Virus record (IMG/VR): IMGVR_UViG_3300044859_001080
Span: 21,298-85,297 of that record
DNA: 64,000 nt
Reading direction: 5' to 3' (one strand)
From: a virus
The position numbers were made by a program, and so were the translations under genes. Of the stretch, positions 50,938 to 54,384 are shown piece by piece; the first letter of the stretch is position 1; each line of letters opens with the position of its first letter. Below the pieces are notes generated by a model. It worked only from the letters and a program-made list of their open reading frames with translations. It ran no database searches and was not told the DNA's origin.

Positions 50938-51540
50938 ATGATAGAAATTATAGAAAAAAATGCAATAATCTATGAAACTAGATTATCAAGAATATGGAAA
51001 CACATTGAGAATGACTCATCGTCTTTTGGAGTTATTTCGCCATTTAGAAAATATTTATCTATGGATGAAAATTTGGAAAGGTATAAAGAGTTAAAATCTT
51101 TCATCAAAGATAAACTTAAAATTGGCTACATTGAAATGGATGGTGGCTTCAAAGAAGAGGGTGATTGGGTAAATGAAAAATCACTTTTTATTCCAAACAT
51201 AAGAAAAGAAGATTTAATTTTTTTGGGAGAATATTATGACCAGTATTCTGTCATCTATAAAAGTAAAAACGAGTTTATTGAAATTGGCACAAATGATATG
51301 TCAGATATGGGTGAAGTTTTAAACAATTTCAAAAAAAGTGGCTGGGATAAAAATATGCAAATAGATAGTGATACAACAGAGGAATTTTTCTCTAAATTAG
51401 CACGTGGCAGTCATAGAGACCAAAAGTTTTTATTTAATATGGAAGAAAGTTTTCTATATGAATTGGATAGTAAAACATTTAATGATAATTATAGAGAAAG
51501 AAACGGTCGTGGAAAAAAACGGTTGATAAAACTACTTTAA
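50938..51540 (+). CDS. Hypothetical phage protein
   Basis: E.RLSRIW.H, ISPFR, G.F.E, E.S.F, Y.Q.SV. Confidence 0.6.
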   Translation: MIEIIEKNAIIYETRLSRIWKHIENDSSSFGVISPFRKYLSMDENLERYKELKSFIKDKLKIGYIEMDGGFKEEGDWVNEKSLFIPNIRKEDLIFLGEYYDQYSVIYKSKNEFIEIGTNDMSDMGEVLNNFKKSGWDKNMQIDSDTTEEFFSKLARGSHRDQKFLFNMEESFLYELDSKTFNDNYRERNGRGKKRLIKLL

Positions 51541-51558: not shown

Positions 51559-51927
51559 ATGAATGATGAGATTATATTAGAGTTAGTCAATACACAAGTA
51601 CAATTTAGATTCTTGCATTGGCAAACAAAATCATATGCAAAACATAAAGCATATGGTAAATTTTATGATAATTTAGATGATTTGATTGATAAGTATGTTG
51701 AGGTTTGTATGGGTAAACATGGACGTCCTGAATATGATGGGGGTTTTACAATGGAGTTTGAAGATATAAAGGGTTTCTCAATGCAAGAATATCTGGATGA
51801 TTTCACAGAGTTCTTAATGGGTTTGTCAGAAAAATTAACACAAGGAGAAGATACTGATTTGTTAAATATCAGAGATGAGATTTTGGCAGAAGTAAATAAA
51901 ATGAAATATTTATTAACATTAGAATAA
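51559..51927 (+). CDS. Ferritin/Dps-like protein (DUF5856-like)
   Basis: HWQT..YA.H.A...Y......D..VE...G, LLNIRDE.......YLL. Confidence 0.8.
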   Translation: MNDEIILELVNTQVQFRFLHWQTKSYAKHKAYGKFYDNLDDLIDKYVEVCMGKHGRPEYDGGFTMEFEDIKGFSMQEYLDDFTEFLMGLSEKLTQGEDTDLLNIRDEILAEVNKMKYLLTLE

Positions 51928-51971
51928 TGAGAAGAAATTTAATTAATGAGGGGCTATTGAAAAATGATTAA
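51927..51971 (+). pseudogene. Orphaned 5' stub (MRRNLINEGLLKND*), probably the original start of the DHH gene
   Basis: TAATG-coupled to the Dps-like gene. It begins ATGAGAAGAAA, like ATGAGAAAAAA at 52906, and its stop overlaps the HNH start. Confidence 0.45.
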
Positions 51972-52878
51972 ATCTATTTGGAAGCCAGTTTATTTTAAAT
52001 CTAAAATAATTTATTATGATATGGTTGAAGTTGAAGACTTAACAAATAAAAAAGGGACTACTGCTTATAAAGTAATCTGGGTTTGCGATAATCCAAAATG
52101 TAAAACCCCAAGTAAAATTCATTCAATAAGTGCTCATCATTTAACTAAAGTAAAAAATAATTTTAATATACAAATATGCAGACCTTGCCAGTGTTCTGGT
52201 GAAGGTAATGGTAGATTTGGTGATAATAGAAAATGGAGTGATTTTCATAGTGAAGAAAGAGTTAAAGAATTAAAATTAATCTATTCTGAAAAATGGAAAG
52301 GTATTAAAAACCCCTCTTTAATTGATGATGTCAAAATAAAAAAGAATCAAAGTATAATAAATGAAGTTTTTTTAAAAAAAATAGTAAATAAAAATGGCTT
52401 TAAATTGTTATCATTAGTAGAATTAGATGGTAAAAATAGTAAATTAGTTGTTGAGTGTAAAAATGGGCATATTTCTAATAAAAGATATGTTAATTTTGTT
52501 GCTAAACATAAAAAATTTATATGCAGTAAATGTTTTTATAATTCAATTGCACTTAATTTATCAAAGGAAGATATGTTAATTATTAAAAATTATTATAGGA
52601 TAGTTAGGTCTATGACTAAAAAAACCTATAAACAATATAAAAATATAATTAATCCTAATAATCTTAAAATAAGTTTCAATACTTATCATATTGACCATAA
52701 ATTTAGTGTAGCAGAAGGGTTTAGAAATAATTTACCACCTGAAATTTTGAGTGCCAAGGAAAACTTACAAATACTAACACAACATAACAATTTATCAAAA
52801 CAAGATAAATGTTCAATTACTTTAGATGAATTAATTGAAAAAACAAAGTATATAAATGTGTTAAAAACGCATAACTAA
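51964..52878 (+). mobile_element. Free-standing HNH homing endonuclease
   Basis: CD...C/CRPC and C..GH/CSKC zinc ribbons, and C-terminal YHIDHKFS...NLQILT...NLSK HNH motif. Very AT-rich. Confidence 0.8.
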
Positions 52879-52905
52879 TCTATTTATAATAAAAAATAAA
52901 CGACT

Positions 52906-54384
52906 ATGAGAAAAAACAATCAGGTCCTGGTAGAAAGTGGAATTAGAGATATTGATGCTCTTGCGAACCGTTATAATAAAGCGGAGATCTACTTTCACCA
53001 GGACCTCTAAGGGCTTGATGGAGTTGCCTCGGCTTTGGCCATGAAGAAATACTTGGAAGATAATGGCATCAAAGTTGTTGATGCACATATTATCCAATAC
53101 GGAGATACAGAATTTGCTGTAAAGAAGAATGATGCCTTAGGAGACACTATGCCTGTTCTAGTGGATTTTGCTCATGGAAAACCTATGTTTAAAATACACA
53201 CAGACCACCATGATAGTCAGATTGGGGTTGATACCAAGAAAACATCTGGGCAATTTAAAAAAGCCAGATCGAATGCAGAAACAATTTCACAAGTTATTTC
53301 AAAAAATGATTTGTTTAGTGATACTGATATTTTAATTATAAATACAGTTGACTCTGCTGACTTTGTTAGACAAGGTTTAACTACAGATGATGTTATTAAT
53401 TATTTATTCAAATTTGACAAATCAAAAAGTGTTAGAGAGAATAAATTATTAATGGGTTTAGTTGCAAATAAATTACTATTGGCTTTTAAAAACAAGAAAG
53501 GATTTCTTGAAAATTTGGTTATGAATTCAAAACCTTCCATTTTATCAATATTGAATAATATAAAGAAATGGATGAAAGAAAATACTACTGAACTCCCAGA
53601 AGATTTACAAGCAAATGCTGAAAAGTATATTGAAAGTATGAAGGGTCATAAGAATGTTGAATTTAAAGATGGTATTATTTACCAATATGGTATGGGTTCT
53701 TTAAAGGGAACAGGTTCATACGATAGATATACATCATTTAAAAACCAACCTGATGCTGATTTCTTAATTATATACTGGCCACTAGGATTAATTCAAGTTT
53801 CAAAAAATCCATTTAAACCAAACCCCAAGTATAGCAAATTACATTTAGGTGAATTGGCACAAAAAGTTATGGGGCAATTTAAACCTATGTTAGAAGATAA
53901 ATTAATTTTATTATCAACAATTAAATGGGTTAGTGAATCAAAAGCAACAGAAGAAAGTGTTGGTTTTACCTTTAATGATTTTTATGCCACTTATGGTGAT
54001 AAATATTATACAAAAGAAGGTGCTCCAAAAACAAATGAGGAATTAAAGGGAATTATGGATAAGTTGTTTGGTGAATTAACTGAAGAGGAGAAAAAGAAAT
54101 TAGATAGTATTGCACTAAATGCTTGGGATTTAATTCAAGCAAATAGTGGGGGTCATCCAAGTATTACAAATATTTCTGGACTTAACTTTATTGGTAGGGG
54201 TAGCAGACCACCATCAAAAGAACCAAGAACGTATGCACCAAAATCAACTGAACCAAGAACATATGCACCAAAAACAAGCACCTACAAATCAGAGCCAAGA
54301 ACTGAAACTCAATATCTGACATTAATGAAAGATATTGCAAGTAAAATAAAAACCAAATTAGAGAAGGAGATTTCTAGTTATTAA
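52906..54384 (+). CDS. DHH-family phosphoesterase interrupted by in-frame TAA at 53008-53010 (candidate recoded gene)
   Basis: ATG 52906 reads MRKNNQVLVESGIRDIDALANRYNKAEIYFHQDL*GLDGVASALAMK in frame with the 53035 ORF, which has VLVDFAH, HTDHH and SGGH motifs. Confidence 0.8.

Follow-up and report, generated by a model that had tools for sequence, protein, structure and literature searches.

A candidate natural stop-hop within a DHH phosphoesterase gene of jumbo phages and its linkage to a nuclease-like gene

In a lake jumbo phage, nine bases interrupt a DHH-type phosphoesterase gene in motif I, between the codons for its two Asp residues, and comparison of related alleles makes it probable that these bases (TAA GGG CTT, 53008-53016 of the 64,000-nucleotide stretch of DNA analysed here, hereafter the window) form a non-coding gap that is hopped by ribosomes within a programmed stop-hop cassette. 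As the aligned alleles indicate, related jumbo phages have gaps of 6, 8 or 9 nt at the same site, each with a stop, and the gap described here belongs to this family. An earlier sequence-only reading of this DNA had proposed a hop over a stop insert linked to an endonuclease, as a miniature of T4 gene 60 and mobA, and this core proposal is the sole one that fits all of the comparative data.

The interrupted DHH phosphoesterase gene

The first part of the gene (ORF1, 52906..53007, + strand, as are all features below) opens at ATG 52906, comprises 34 codons and ends FHQD-L, its 3' end reading TTT CAC CAG GAC CTC, after which TAA, GGG, CTT and GAT GGA follow. The site at 53005-53016 is CTC TAA GGG CTT, where 52 distinct insert-free homologues have FHQD-L-DG. 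The proposed take-off codon CUC (53005-53007) is the last codon of ORF1, the nine bases proposed to be skipped (53008..53016) consist of the stop TAA (53008-10), the spacer GGG (53011-13) and the landing codon CUU (53014-16), and GAU at 53017 would be the first codon decoded after the gap. From there the second part (ORF2, 53017..54384, DGVASALAMK...DHH...GGH..., final TAA included) continues the DHH/DHHA1 phosphoesterase gene in a frame that is uninterrupted up to 54384. Reading through the insert gives 492 positions and skipping the nine bases gives an enzyme of 489 aa. The closest insert-free relative, L004 (91% aa identity), has AKIYFHQDLDGVASALAMK; compared with it, the window has exactly 9 additional bases separating the Asp codons. 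The ATG 52906 frame with its single TAA and 9-nt insert is exactly as first described, and the claim that the insert separates the two metal-binding Asp codons is borne out by L004 and the 52 homologues without it; the downstream ORF alone (from TTG 53035 or ATG 53041) indeed lacks both motif I Asp residues.

We found that 24 diverse homologues all have F28 H29 Q30 D31 L32 D33 G34, and that the invariant DHH-family residues D31-x-D33, D82, D95-H96-H97 and G410-G411-H412 supply the DxD, D, DHH and DHHA1 GGH motifs by which the DHH fold is recognised. Of the best 50 Foldseek matches listed for an intact homologue nearly all were DHH/DHHA1 proteins (PggH, RecJ, DhhP, NrnA, GdpP), with a best E of 2e-5, low TM scores and a query model of pLDDT 69. 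The Pfam DHH family (PF01368) scored 18.5 bits against the intact L004 protein (E 0.0025), which is below the cut-off of 28.1; no match to the read-through translation of the window was found in Pfam or PHROGs, and a PDB search with a profile built on the alignment of the DHH family returned no DHH match. The phosphoesterase gene is a divergent branch of the DHH/DHHA1 enzymes.

The nine bases, which the sequence-only reading allowed might be missing from reads, are present in DNA from 14 runs spanning at least 10 studies, each run containing 100% of the sampled words of 52600-53400; together with the four distinct 9-nt alleles found in independent contigs, these runs rule out an assembly artefact. 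Moreover, RNA-library contigs from two studies span the site with 0 gaps (X17, 52891-53246; X18, 52892-53155) and carry the L090 form of the insert, with GUU at the landing position; carried-over DNA is a possible source of these contigs, rare forms would be hidden in them, they are silent on expression level and strand, and they leave parts of the stretch uncovered.

Lengths, stops and flanking codons of the insert

The same site holds inserts of 6, 8 or 9 nt (16 distinct alleles in three length classes), and skipping 6, 8 or 9 nt gives back the invariant FHQDLDG in 16/16 alleles. A CUN Leu codon followed immediately by a stop was likewise found in all 16, and the landing codon was CUN in 15 of them, the remaining one being the GUU of L090; take-off codons were CUU, CUC or CUG and landing codons CUU, CUG or CUA, once GUU. 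The 6-nt alleles are CUU-UGA-CUU, CUU-UAG-CUU, CUU-UAA-CUU, CUU-UGA-CUG and CUG-UGA-CUU, the 8-nt alleles CUU-UGA-CG-CUA and CUU-UGA-CG-CUG, and the 9-nt alleles CUC-URA-RGG-CUU plus the one with GUU. Among the four 9-nt variants (TAA GGG CTT, TGA GGG CTT, TGA GGG GTT, TAA AGG CTT) the stop is retained throughout and the neighbouring bases differ (GGG/AGG, CTT/GTT, TAA/TGA); the 102 nt ahead of the insert are nearly invariant in these alleles and the insert itself is free to vary. To judge from the codons, take-off and landing codons would be readable by one tRNA-Leu. The matched CUC/CUU pair that had been pointed out in the window is there, but such matching is not universal, and strict re-pairing is not always possible because L090 has GUU at the landing position.

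We then consider the stop itself in 40 IMG/VR contigs with a 6-nt insert, which were collected with a pattern that imposed CUN on both flanks and left the middle codon unconstrained. That free codon was a stop in 40/40 contigs (TGA 33, TAG 6, TAA 1) and a sense codon in 0/40, which answers the possibility, raised earlier, that homologues carry a sense codon at the stop position. This free-codon test replaced an argument from the change of TAA to TGA, which was dropped as a strong sign of selection on the stop because 2/3 of the transitions in TAA keep a stop. In a metagenome pattern search, 4/6 matches (L087, L088, L089, L092) were due to chance. As regards a possible nascent-peptide signal, basic residues lie about 29-32 aa ahead of the take-off Leu in the insert alleles, and insert-free alleles also have Lys-rich N-termini.

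An mRNA helix that ends at the take-off codon

A 17-bp mRNA helix (52924..53004, arms 52924-52941 and 52988-53004) abuts the take-off codon with its 3' end and encloses two small hairpins; in the window it extends to 19 bp (52922-52941 with 52988-53006), and it is backed by one 10-bp perfect and one 9-bp inverted repeat. The region folds with an MFE of -35 kcal/mol (z -4.1; 0/200 shuffles as stable). Across 15 distinct insert alleles, 99.2% of cells are paired, the covariation score is reached by 0/500 shuffles, and sliding the partners drops pairing to 38-46%. The insert alleles form 16.75/17 of the helix pairs, as against 8.5/17 in the 52 insert-free alleles. Pair 23-91, with compensatory exchange of GC and AU in 4 alleles, is the sole fully compensatory pair; 10/17 pairs never vary, and the 3' arm also encodes the conserved IYFHQD. 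A mini-hairpin CCU-CUAA-GGG over the take-off site had been suggested as a signal, and this suggestion was not upheld: the hairpin is absent from the MFE and centroid folds and from the 6-nt class, and it competes with the far stronger long helix. The probable stimulator is, from these foldings and alignments, the conserved 17-19 bp helix ending at the take-off codon and not the mini-hairpin.

The upstream nuclease-like gene and the mosaic window

Directly upstream lies a gene for a putative homing endonuclease of 304 aa (51964..52878) with two Cys/His zinc-ribbon modules and a C-terminal HNH-like module, H242-x-D244-H245...N267...N276, in which H242, D244, H245, N267 and N276 are invariant among the homologues. 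The protein had no match in Pfam, NCBIfam or PDB sequence searches, no Pfam domain was found in 85 clusters of its homologues, and Foldseek returned nothing at E<=0.001. VIA-align of residues 189-282 gave as top match the Gme HNH nicking endonuclease (4h9d_A, Z 4.5, a weak similarity), followed by GVE2 HNH (Z 3.9) and VcaM4I (Z 3.0). The ORF that had been called an HNH homing endonuclease exists, but the name HNH rests on this weak fold similarity. Between it and the DHH gene is a cassette-borne leader (52879..52905) that contains the TATTTAT motif (52881) and the A-rich stretch noted earlier ahead of the new DHH start codon, ATG 52906, and that is conserved in L006, L090 and L091.

The nuclease gene always accompanies a DHH gene with an insert: all 14 distinct alleles that have it directly upstream and in the same orientation carry one. 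The expected co-occurrence of the two holds in this direction only; in the other, the insert often persists without the nuclease gene, as in L090, L091 and 24/40 of the 6-nt contigs. At the same slot the nuclease gene is present in the window and in L006-8 and absent from L004, L005, L009, L090 and L091, and it is thus polymorphic among close relatives. On the gene-body tree (a quick tree) the insert state needs 7 changes, of which at least 4 are forced by well-supported branches.

The window itself is a mosaic. Left of the import (51559-51953) the identity of the window is 0.937 to L004 and 0.848 to L006; in the leader and ORF1 (52879-53007) it is 0.68 and 0.952, and in 53017-53200 it is 0.783 and 0.891, respectively; in 53391-54384 it returns to 0.949 and 0.786, and further downstream to 0.949 and 0.742. 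The imported segment (51954..53390), surrounded by L004-like backbone, runs from the nuclease gene through the leader, ORF1 and the insert into a co-conversion tract, and its right junction lies between ~53200 and 53390. In addition, the 5' end of the recipient's former DHH gene survives as an orphaned stub at 51927..51971 (ATGAGAAGAAATTTAATTAATGAGGGG..., MRRNLINEG, out-of-context codons, TAA), which matches L004 and is the same as the start of the L004 gene as far as 51953, where the nuclease cassette begins; the stub is TAATG-coupled to a DUF5856/Dps-like gene, and its end overlaps the start of the nuclease gene. The L004-like backbone, the imported 5' gene end and the orphaned original start are what co-conversion of flanking sequence leaves behind. 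By these identities the window is a recent recipient, with a ~95% L004-like backbone into which the nuclease gene and a tract of ~300-480 nt came from an L006-like donor. By its distribution the gap shows genetic linkage to the upstream nuclease-like gene, and the two seem to behave as a mobile cassette.

Proposed hop and spread of the gap

We propose that peptidyl-tRNA-Leu would stand on CUC (53005-07) in the P site with the stop in the A site, where decoding would pause. The tRNA would release CUC and the mRNA would slip by 9 nt, probably aided by the 17-19 bp helix re-folding on leaving the ribosome with its 3' arm ending at the take-off codon; the tRNA would re-pair with CUU (53014-16), and GAU would be decoded next. 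The predicted product is the 489-aa enzyme, with FHQD-L-DGV intact as the DHH metal-binding motif and AEIYFHQDLDGVASALAMK as the junction peptide. In mixed infections the nuclease presumably cuts insert-free alleles, repair would copy the nuclease gene along with the neighbouring 5' part of the DHH gene, gap included, and this gap presumably disrupts the site that the nuclease recognises.

Other forms of recoding were considered and set aside. The +1 programmed frameshift site of prfB (RF2) is CUU UGA C, and there, as here, tRNA-Leu occupies CUU in the P site and UGA stands in the A site; prfB shifts by +1, whereas a displacement of 6, 8 or 9 nt is required here, and a prfB-style +1 shift at CUU-UGA-C gives FHQDLDLTE and then a stop, a dead product. 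A 12-nt hop from GAC to GAY was rejected, as the product would lose Leu-Asp and read FHQD-GV. An alternative genetic code was rejected, as all three stops terminate long frames of the window and also occur at the insert site.

Selection and alternative explanations

A stop in every insert allele would also suit two polypeptides or re-initiation, in which a peptide of 34-36 aa ending FHQDL is made, translation restarts near the next codon or at a downstream TTG or ATG, and the pieces assemble or the truncated protein acts alone, much like the T4 topoisomerase, which MobA-type insertions split into gp39 and gp60. The window does offer TTG 53035 and ATG 53041 downstream of a GGAG at 53021-24, and homing-endonuclease insertions are known to split genes that remain functional (bioRxiv 10.1101/2022.08.31.505936). 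However, a protein started at either codon lacks both motif I Asp residues, and the post-gap codon, whether CUU, CUG, CUA or GUU, is never a usual bacterial start. In L109, L111 and L112 the next in-frame Met is ~45 codons on, yet the intervening stretch is conserved: over the 16 alleles pN/pS was 0.15 for the first 10 codons past the landing codon and 0.19 for 45 codons. A restart also gives no reason for the post-gap codon to match the Leu codon before the stop and leaves the insert-specific helix unexplained. We consider this explanation unlikely.

That the gene is non-functional, with a selfish nuclease cassette spreading a null allele of a dispensable gene and conservation reflecting recent spread and recombination with intact alleles, we consider quite unlikely. 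The import into the window is recent, more than half of the 6-nt contigs (24/40, as above) have lost the nuclease gene, and one 6-nt lineage (L194, L202, L214, L224, L225) has a helix degraded to 12/17 pairs and a second in-frame TAA, so that the gene can decay and may be dispensable. Against this, insert-bearing alleles diverge under constraint: omega was 0.08 for L006-L090 (dS 0.194) and 0.13 for both L006-L091 and L090-L091, comparable to the 0.12 of the insert-free pair L004-L009, and the 16 distinct insert alleles (pS ~0.7) show no additional stop or frameshift. Selection downstream of the stop is thus not relaxed (omega ~0.1), and the recent pseudogene that had been listed as an alternative does not agree with dN/dS ~0.1 among insert-bearing alleles. 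Nor would a null allele retain a stop in 40/40 contigs, flanking Leu codons or a compensated helix. The argument from selection is drawn from the L006, L090 and L091 lineage and from other lineages; the intact downstream ORF of the window itself proves nothing, because its import is recent.

Read-through of the stop by a suppressor tRNA or near-cognate decoding, which in the 9-nt class would place three extra residues, L-X-G/R-L/V, between the two Asp, is highly improbable. In its favour, inserts of 6 and 9 nt keep the frame, jumbo phages are known to recode stops, and the relative G001 has 12 tRNA-like genes, one of them an odd tRNA-like sequence of 122 nt. The 8-nt class, however, moves LDGVTT... 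to another frame, in which FHQDLDGV is obtained only by an 8-nt hop, and read-through cannot decode this form because the insert changes the frame. All three stops occur at the site and also end long frames of the window (TAA 43, TGA 13, TAG 7), the other insert codons differ non-synonymously between close alleles, the extra residues would push the DxD metal ligands apart, and ARAGORN called no suppressor tRNA in the window or in a 270-kb relative. The frame change and the 0/40 sense codons speak against the read-through that the sequence-only reading had kept as an alternative; for the 9-nt class of the window, where the insert is in frame, the argument against read-through is confined to the analogy with the 8-nt class and to how freely the insert varies.

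Removal of the gap at the nucleic-acid level (a mini-intron, RNA editing, transcriptional skipping or the remnant of a group I intron, two of which had been put forward before) is the least probable of all: self-splicing introns often house homing endonucleases, but 51800-53400 gave no Rfam match at E<=1 to a group I intron or any other known RNA family, no known splicing system acts on stretches as short as 6-9 nt, and X17 and X18 retain all 9 nt, DNA carry-over being possible in both.

Discussion

For decades, the basis of programmed translational bypassing has been T4 gene 60 with its homologues and the byps of yeast mitochondria. In T4, a single mobile element comprises MobA and the gene 60 gap, and the gap protects against MobA (bioRxiv 10.1101/2022.08.31.505936). 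The stop-hop proposed here resembles that system in that a non-coding gap lies within an invariant metal-binding motif of an enzyme gene (PMC5009743; bioRxiv 10.1101/2022.08.31.505936), the stop directly follows the take-off codon, and the landing codon can be read by the same tRNA. The differences are that the gap is 6-9 nt as against ~50 nt in gene 60, the hop codons are Leu CUN as against Gly GGA, and neither a take-off stem-loop of the gene 60 kind nor an internal SD in the gap is present here. The conserved structure here is the long helix up to the take-off codon; for gene 60, by contrast, the 5' stem-loop reportedly differs between clades and is not conserved. The target is a DHH phosphoesterase and not a topoisomerase, the endonuclease does not split the gene in two ORFs, and the nuclease, unlike MobA (HNH), does not detectably resemble known HNH families in sequence. 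In origin, the cassette appears to be independent of T4 gene 60/MobA.

In E. coli, synthetic stop-hops function with matched codons on either side of a stop, and a 2016 review (PMC5009743) knew of no case in nature; our literature search for a later report of a natural stop-hop found none. In these constructs, as described by the papers that cite Weiss et al. 1987 (PMC5009743; bioRxiv 10.1101/2024.12.09.627546), matched codons flank a stop, 9 nt encode one amino acid, and, as proposed here, the peptidyl-tRNA re-pairs a few bases downstream with the slow A-site stop as trigger. The 6-nt class CUU-stop-CUU has the exact layout so described. By the same accounts the synthetic hops are engineered, of low efficiency and without a stimulatory signal, whereas the family here is natural and selected, has a dedicated helix, and also includes 8- and 9-nt displacements. 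The mitochondrial byps of Magnusiomyces capitatus, in the description of PMC5009743, are likewise short inserts in conserved genes that are bypassed harmlessly and show mobile behaviour, with imperfect take-off/landing matches tolerated; in that description they are, unlike the gaps here, mitochondrial, 27-55 nt long, independent of mRNA context and marked by an A-site sense codon that is otherwise unused; it mentions no endonuclease partner, as against the nuclease-like gene here. A survey from 2022 (Manning and Atkins) terms the gene 60 cassette unique (bioRxiv 10.1101/2022.08.31.505936), and forward bypassing has been proposed to be driven by mRNA pairing at the ribosome exit (bioRxiv 10.1101/2024.12.09.627546).

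On the whole, we think it rather likely that these jumbo phages carry a natural, selected family of 6-, 8- and 9-nt stop-hops, guided or powered by a helix re-forming behind the ribosome, in which the gaps are the immunity half of a mobile nuclease cassette independent of T4 gene 60. Stop-hops have so far been reported from engineered E. coli constructs alone. Hops of 6, 8 and 9 nt at one site, with all three stops, varied Leu pairs and a covarying helix, amount to a ready-made mutational series, which could test codon release by the ribosome, displacement of the mRNA and exit pairing as the driver. It would also be a second, independent case of a homing endonuclease and a bypass gap travelling together, and would support the view of gaps as target-site immunity where the sequence is too conserved for substitution. 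Further, if this reading holds, homing endonucleases may quite generally use short hops to mark those sites in phage genes that are most conserved, and many 'broken' phage genes in databases would be recoded and not dead. Gene callers split or discard such genes, and similar recoded genes are therefore probably hidden in phage metagenomes.

Results

The gene at 52906-54384 opens at ATG 52906, runs for 34 codons to TTT CAC CAG GAC CTC, is broken by TAA (53008-53010), resumes with GGG CTT GAT GGA and stays open to 54384, exactly as the sequence-only reading had described it. The closest insert-free relative, L004 (91% amino acid identity), reads ...AKIYFHQDLDGVASALAMK, and F28, H29, Q30, D31, L32, D33 and G34 are invariant in 24 diverse homologues; therefore the window carries exactly 9 extra bases (TAA GGG CTT, 53008-53016) placed between the two Asp codons of metal-binding motif I. 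The same 24 homologues also show no variation in the DxD, D, DHH and GGH motifs. The gene product has a DHH/DHHA1 fold: when the intact L004 protein was modelled (pLDDT 69), almost the only matches listed to rank 50 were PggH, RecJ, DhhP, PAP phosphatase, NrnA and GdpP (best E 2e-5), and the same protein scored below the cut-off for Pfam DHH (18.5 vs 28.1 bits). Some DHH genes, in L010 (3995-6256), L011, L014 and L114 (4560-6830), carry a long extension at the C-terminus and encode about 755 aa where about 470 aa is usual. The source IMG/VR record has 85 kb and is rated 28% complete by CheckV, and therefore derives from a jumbo phage. The window is AT-rich (GC roughly 25-30% around the finding), and no tRNA gene was found in it. 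A reassigned genetic code was rejected, since TAA, TGA and TAG all terminate ordinary long frames in the window.

The insert is real DNA: 14 DNA runs, drawn from at least 10 lake or freshwater studies (2020-2025), contain every sampled word of 52600-53400. A degenerate pattern that left 12 nt free between the Asp codons yielded three further 9-nt alleles, CTC TGA GGG CTT (L006-8), CTC TGA GGG GTT (L090) and CTC TAA AGG CTT (L091). The frame is full-length except for one stop in all 9-nt alleles, and close alleles differ freely in the bases of the insert (GGG/AGG, CTT/GTT, TAA/TGA).

The 304-aa protein of the upstream nuclease gene (51964-52878) had 85 homologue clusters, and their profile retrieved loci with a 52-62% identical nuclease homologue directly upstream of the DHH gene, which in each locus was interrupted at the same place by other inserts. 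The 6-nt inserts read CTT TGA CTT, CTT TAG CTT, CTT TAA CTT, CTT TGA CTG and CTG TGA CTT, and the 8-nt inserts, on two diverged contigs, CTT TGA CG CTA and CTT TGA CG CTG. The 6-, 8- and 9-nt classes together gave 16 distinct alleles, all 16 with a CUN Leu codon followed immediately by a stop. The proposed pairing of matched Leu codons held for 15 of the 16, which have CUN before the second Asp codon, and failed in L090, which has GUU.

A helix ends at the take-off codon, its arms being 52922-52931 with 52997-53006 (perfect) and 52933-52941 with 52988-52996. The 106-nt fold has -35 kcal/mol (z -4.1), a stability reached by none of 200 shuffles, and the 3' arm ends within CUC in the window and with the final base of the first Asp codon in the family overall. 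The 16-allele alignment shows pairing in 99.2% of the cells of the 17-bp helix, slid partners pairing in 38-46% only; pair 23-91 changes from GC to AU in four alleles, and the covariation score of 0.114 was reached by 0/500 shuffles. Over these columns insert alleles make 16.75 of the 17 pairs, as against 8.5 (at most 14) for 52 insert-free alleles. Ten of the 17 pairs are identical in every allele, and the conserved IYFHQD is also encoded by the 3' arm; synonymous sites have diverged less before the gap (pS 0.45) than after it (0.71). Folding lent no support to the mini-hairpin CCU-CUAA-GGG that had been suggested over the take-off site.

One 6-nt-gap lineage (L202 around 12290 (+), L194, L214, L224, L225) has a degraded helix (12/17 pairs). 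In its R-S-N motif the invariant Ser has given way to another in-frame TAA (SHSR*NVKT), the remainder being open; this is a decaying copy or else a further site of recoding. The insert-free L064 (1984-3399), which the gene tree groups as sister to gap-bearing L109, already has 14/17 helix pairs and the insert-type N-terminus (MTSKKNMRVLVESG), and may represent a revertant or precursor state. A separate conserved hairpin, of about 12 bp, lies within the 95 nt preceding the Leu codon in many insert-free homologues (L040, L042, L073, L024 and others), with GCUUUG...CAAAGC around ALRKRYPKA in the 5' coding region (z down to -5.3).

Co-occurrence of insert and nuclease, also proposed earlier, proved one-sided: in a set of 81 loci retrieved with the DHH protein, every nuclease gene comes with the insert, and, counted separately, an insert is present in all 14 distinct alleles that have a co-oriented nuclease gene immediately upstream. 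The reverse fails, the gap standing without a nuclease gene within 1.5 kb in L090, L091 and 24 of 40 six-nt contigs. Identity to L004 and L006, respectively, is 93.7% and 84.8% over 51559-51953, 68% and 95.2% over the leader (52879-52905) and ORF1 (52906-53007), 78% and 89% over 53017-53200, 94.9% and 78.6% over 53391-54384, and 94.9% and 74.2% over the downstream genes. Ahead of the nuclease gene, from 51927, an orphaned gene start of L004 type (ATGAGAAGAAATTTAATTAATGAGGGG) persists; thus an L004-like phage acquired the nuclease gene with a new 5' gene end comprising helix and gap. As a sequence pattern, this mosaic is what homing with co-conversion would be expected to leave behind. Mapped onto a quick ML tree of the gene body, the presence or absence of the insert requires 7 changes, and well-supported branches force at least 4 of these.

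Further left, a 200-aa ORF (50938-51540) shared with L006 (73% aa) and absent from L004 lies beside a DUF5856 gene that is L004-like, which is further left-flank mosaicism. In the huge-phage-like L116 (1656-4403) and L117 (1716-4174), a divergently oriented nuclease homologue (40-42% identical) sits beside the 5' end of a DHH gene that is intact and gap-free (WLHKDLDGV, YIHDDMDGM); therefore the association of nuclease and DHH gene is older than the gap.

Sequence-family searches gave no match for the upstream protein, earlier labelled HNH; its C-terminal module, with an invariant H-x-D-H...N...N, weakly resembles two HNH nucleases in fold (VIA-align Z 4.5 and 3.9), which tentatively points to an HNH nuclease. 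Its gene is itself mosaic: compared with L006 (3060-3950), 52187-52546 is 92-100% identical, and the 5' part (65-78%) and the 3' catalytic part (53-73%) are far more diverged, a pattern that suggests module exchange within the nuclease family. The C-terminal YHxDH...N...N module (about 90 aa, 40-54% identical) is common to many other phage proteins (L121-L174, such as L123 2910-3824, L136 2901-3992 and L164 2889-3842), which have differing N-terminal arrays of Cys/His zinc-ribbon repeats and, where scanned, no Pfam domain. Judging by their sequences, they appear to form a large, unnamed family of putative homing endonucleases whose DNA-binding modules can be exchanged.

The 270-kb relative (G001, the L006 contig) has about 12 tRNA genes, with no recognisable suppressor tRNA among them. 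One is a tRNA-Leu(AAG) (L185 1500-1586 (-), G001:C1:212630-212715), which would decode CUU and, with A34 deaminated, CUC/CUA as well, that is, the take-off and landing codons; this may be coincidence or the hopping tRNA. A 122-nt sequence (L184 1501-1622 (-), G001:C1:214613-214734) matches the tRNA model (43 bits) with no ARAGORN call and has 59 nt in place of the anticodon arm, including a second T-arm-like GGTTCGAGTCC; intron-containing, chimeric and decayed tRNAs are candidates.

Discussion

Judged from the alleles compared, the 9-nt gap is probably a stop-hop: peptidyl-tRNA-Leu would leave CUC (53005-53007) with the stop codon in the A site, the mRNA would move 9 nt, and the tRNA would re-pair at CUU (53014-53016), GAU being read next. 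The GUU landing codon of one common allele counts against this. By analogy, re-forming of the helix at the mRNA exit from the ribosome would favour forward slippage, the same role as proposed for exit-side mRNA pairing in gene 60 (bioRxiv 10.1101/2024.12.09.627546).

Termination followed by restart, or a split enzyme, is an unlikely alternative, because L109, L111 and L112 have no nearby in-frame Met, and therefore translation must enter the post-gap stretch from upstream; moreover, pN/pS over the 16 alleles is 0.15 for the first 10 codons past the landing codon and 0.19 for 45 codons (pS 0.71). A spreading null allele, next in order and also improbable, is opposed by omega of 0.08-0.13 (dS 0.08-0.19) among the 9-nt insert alleles, the same level as between intact alleles (0.12); relaxed selection downstream, which the sequence-only reading had named as a refutation, was not seen, and by this measure the insert-bearing gene is evidently not dead. 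The window's own intact ORF was not counted as evidence because its import is recent. Stop read-through is highly improbable: the 8-nt inserts put LDGVTTALAMK in another frame and give FHQDLDGV only via an 8-nt displacement, and TTYCAYCARGAYCTN NNN CTNGAYGG, with a free middle codon, matched 40 IMG/VR contigs that have a stop there in 40/40 (TGA 33, TAG 6, TAA 1) and never a sense codon. Least probable of all is gap removal at the nucleic-acid level, against which argue undeleted RNA-library contigs from two studies (X17 52891-53246, X18 52892-53155; X15 from 53008), with DNA carry-over possible and rare forms hidden in contigs; no Rfam family matched in 51800-53400. These contigs carry 53014 C>G and 53019 T>C, the L090-type GTT GAC allele, which shows that the GUU allele is common.

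In layout the 6-nt class matches the synthetic stop-hops of Weiss et al.; no natural occurrences of these were known to a 2016 review (PMC5009743), and our literature searches found no later report of one. The closest system to the stop-hop proposed here is T4 gene 60 with MobA, a cassette called unique by a 2022 survey and known to outlive MobA (bioRxiv 10.1101/2022.08.31.505936). In both systems an invariant metal-binding motif is interrupted by a gap, the take-off codon is followed by a stop and matched by the landing codon, and the gap has a nuclease partner that it can outlast. However, the DHH gaps measure 6-9 nt vs about 50 in gene 60, and codons, signals, target gene and nuclease also differ; the origin is therefore independent of gene 60. 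In the DHH gene, the putative nuclease would cut insert-free alleles near motif I, and the gap would protect its own allele against it.
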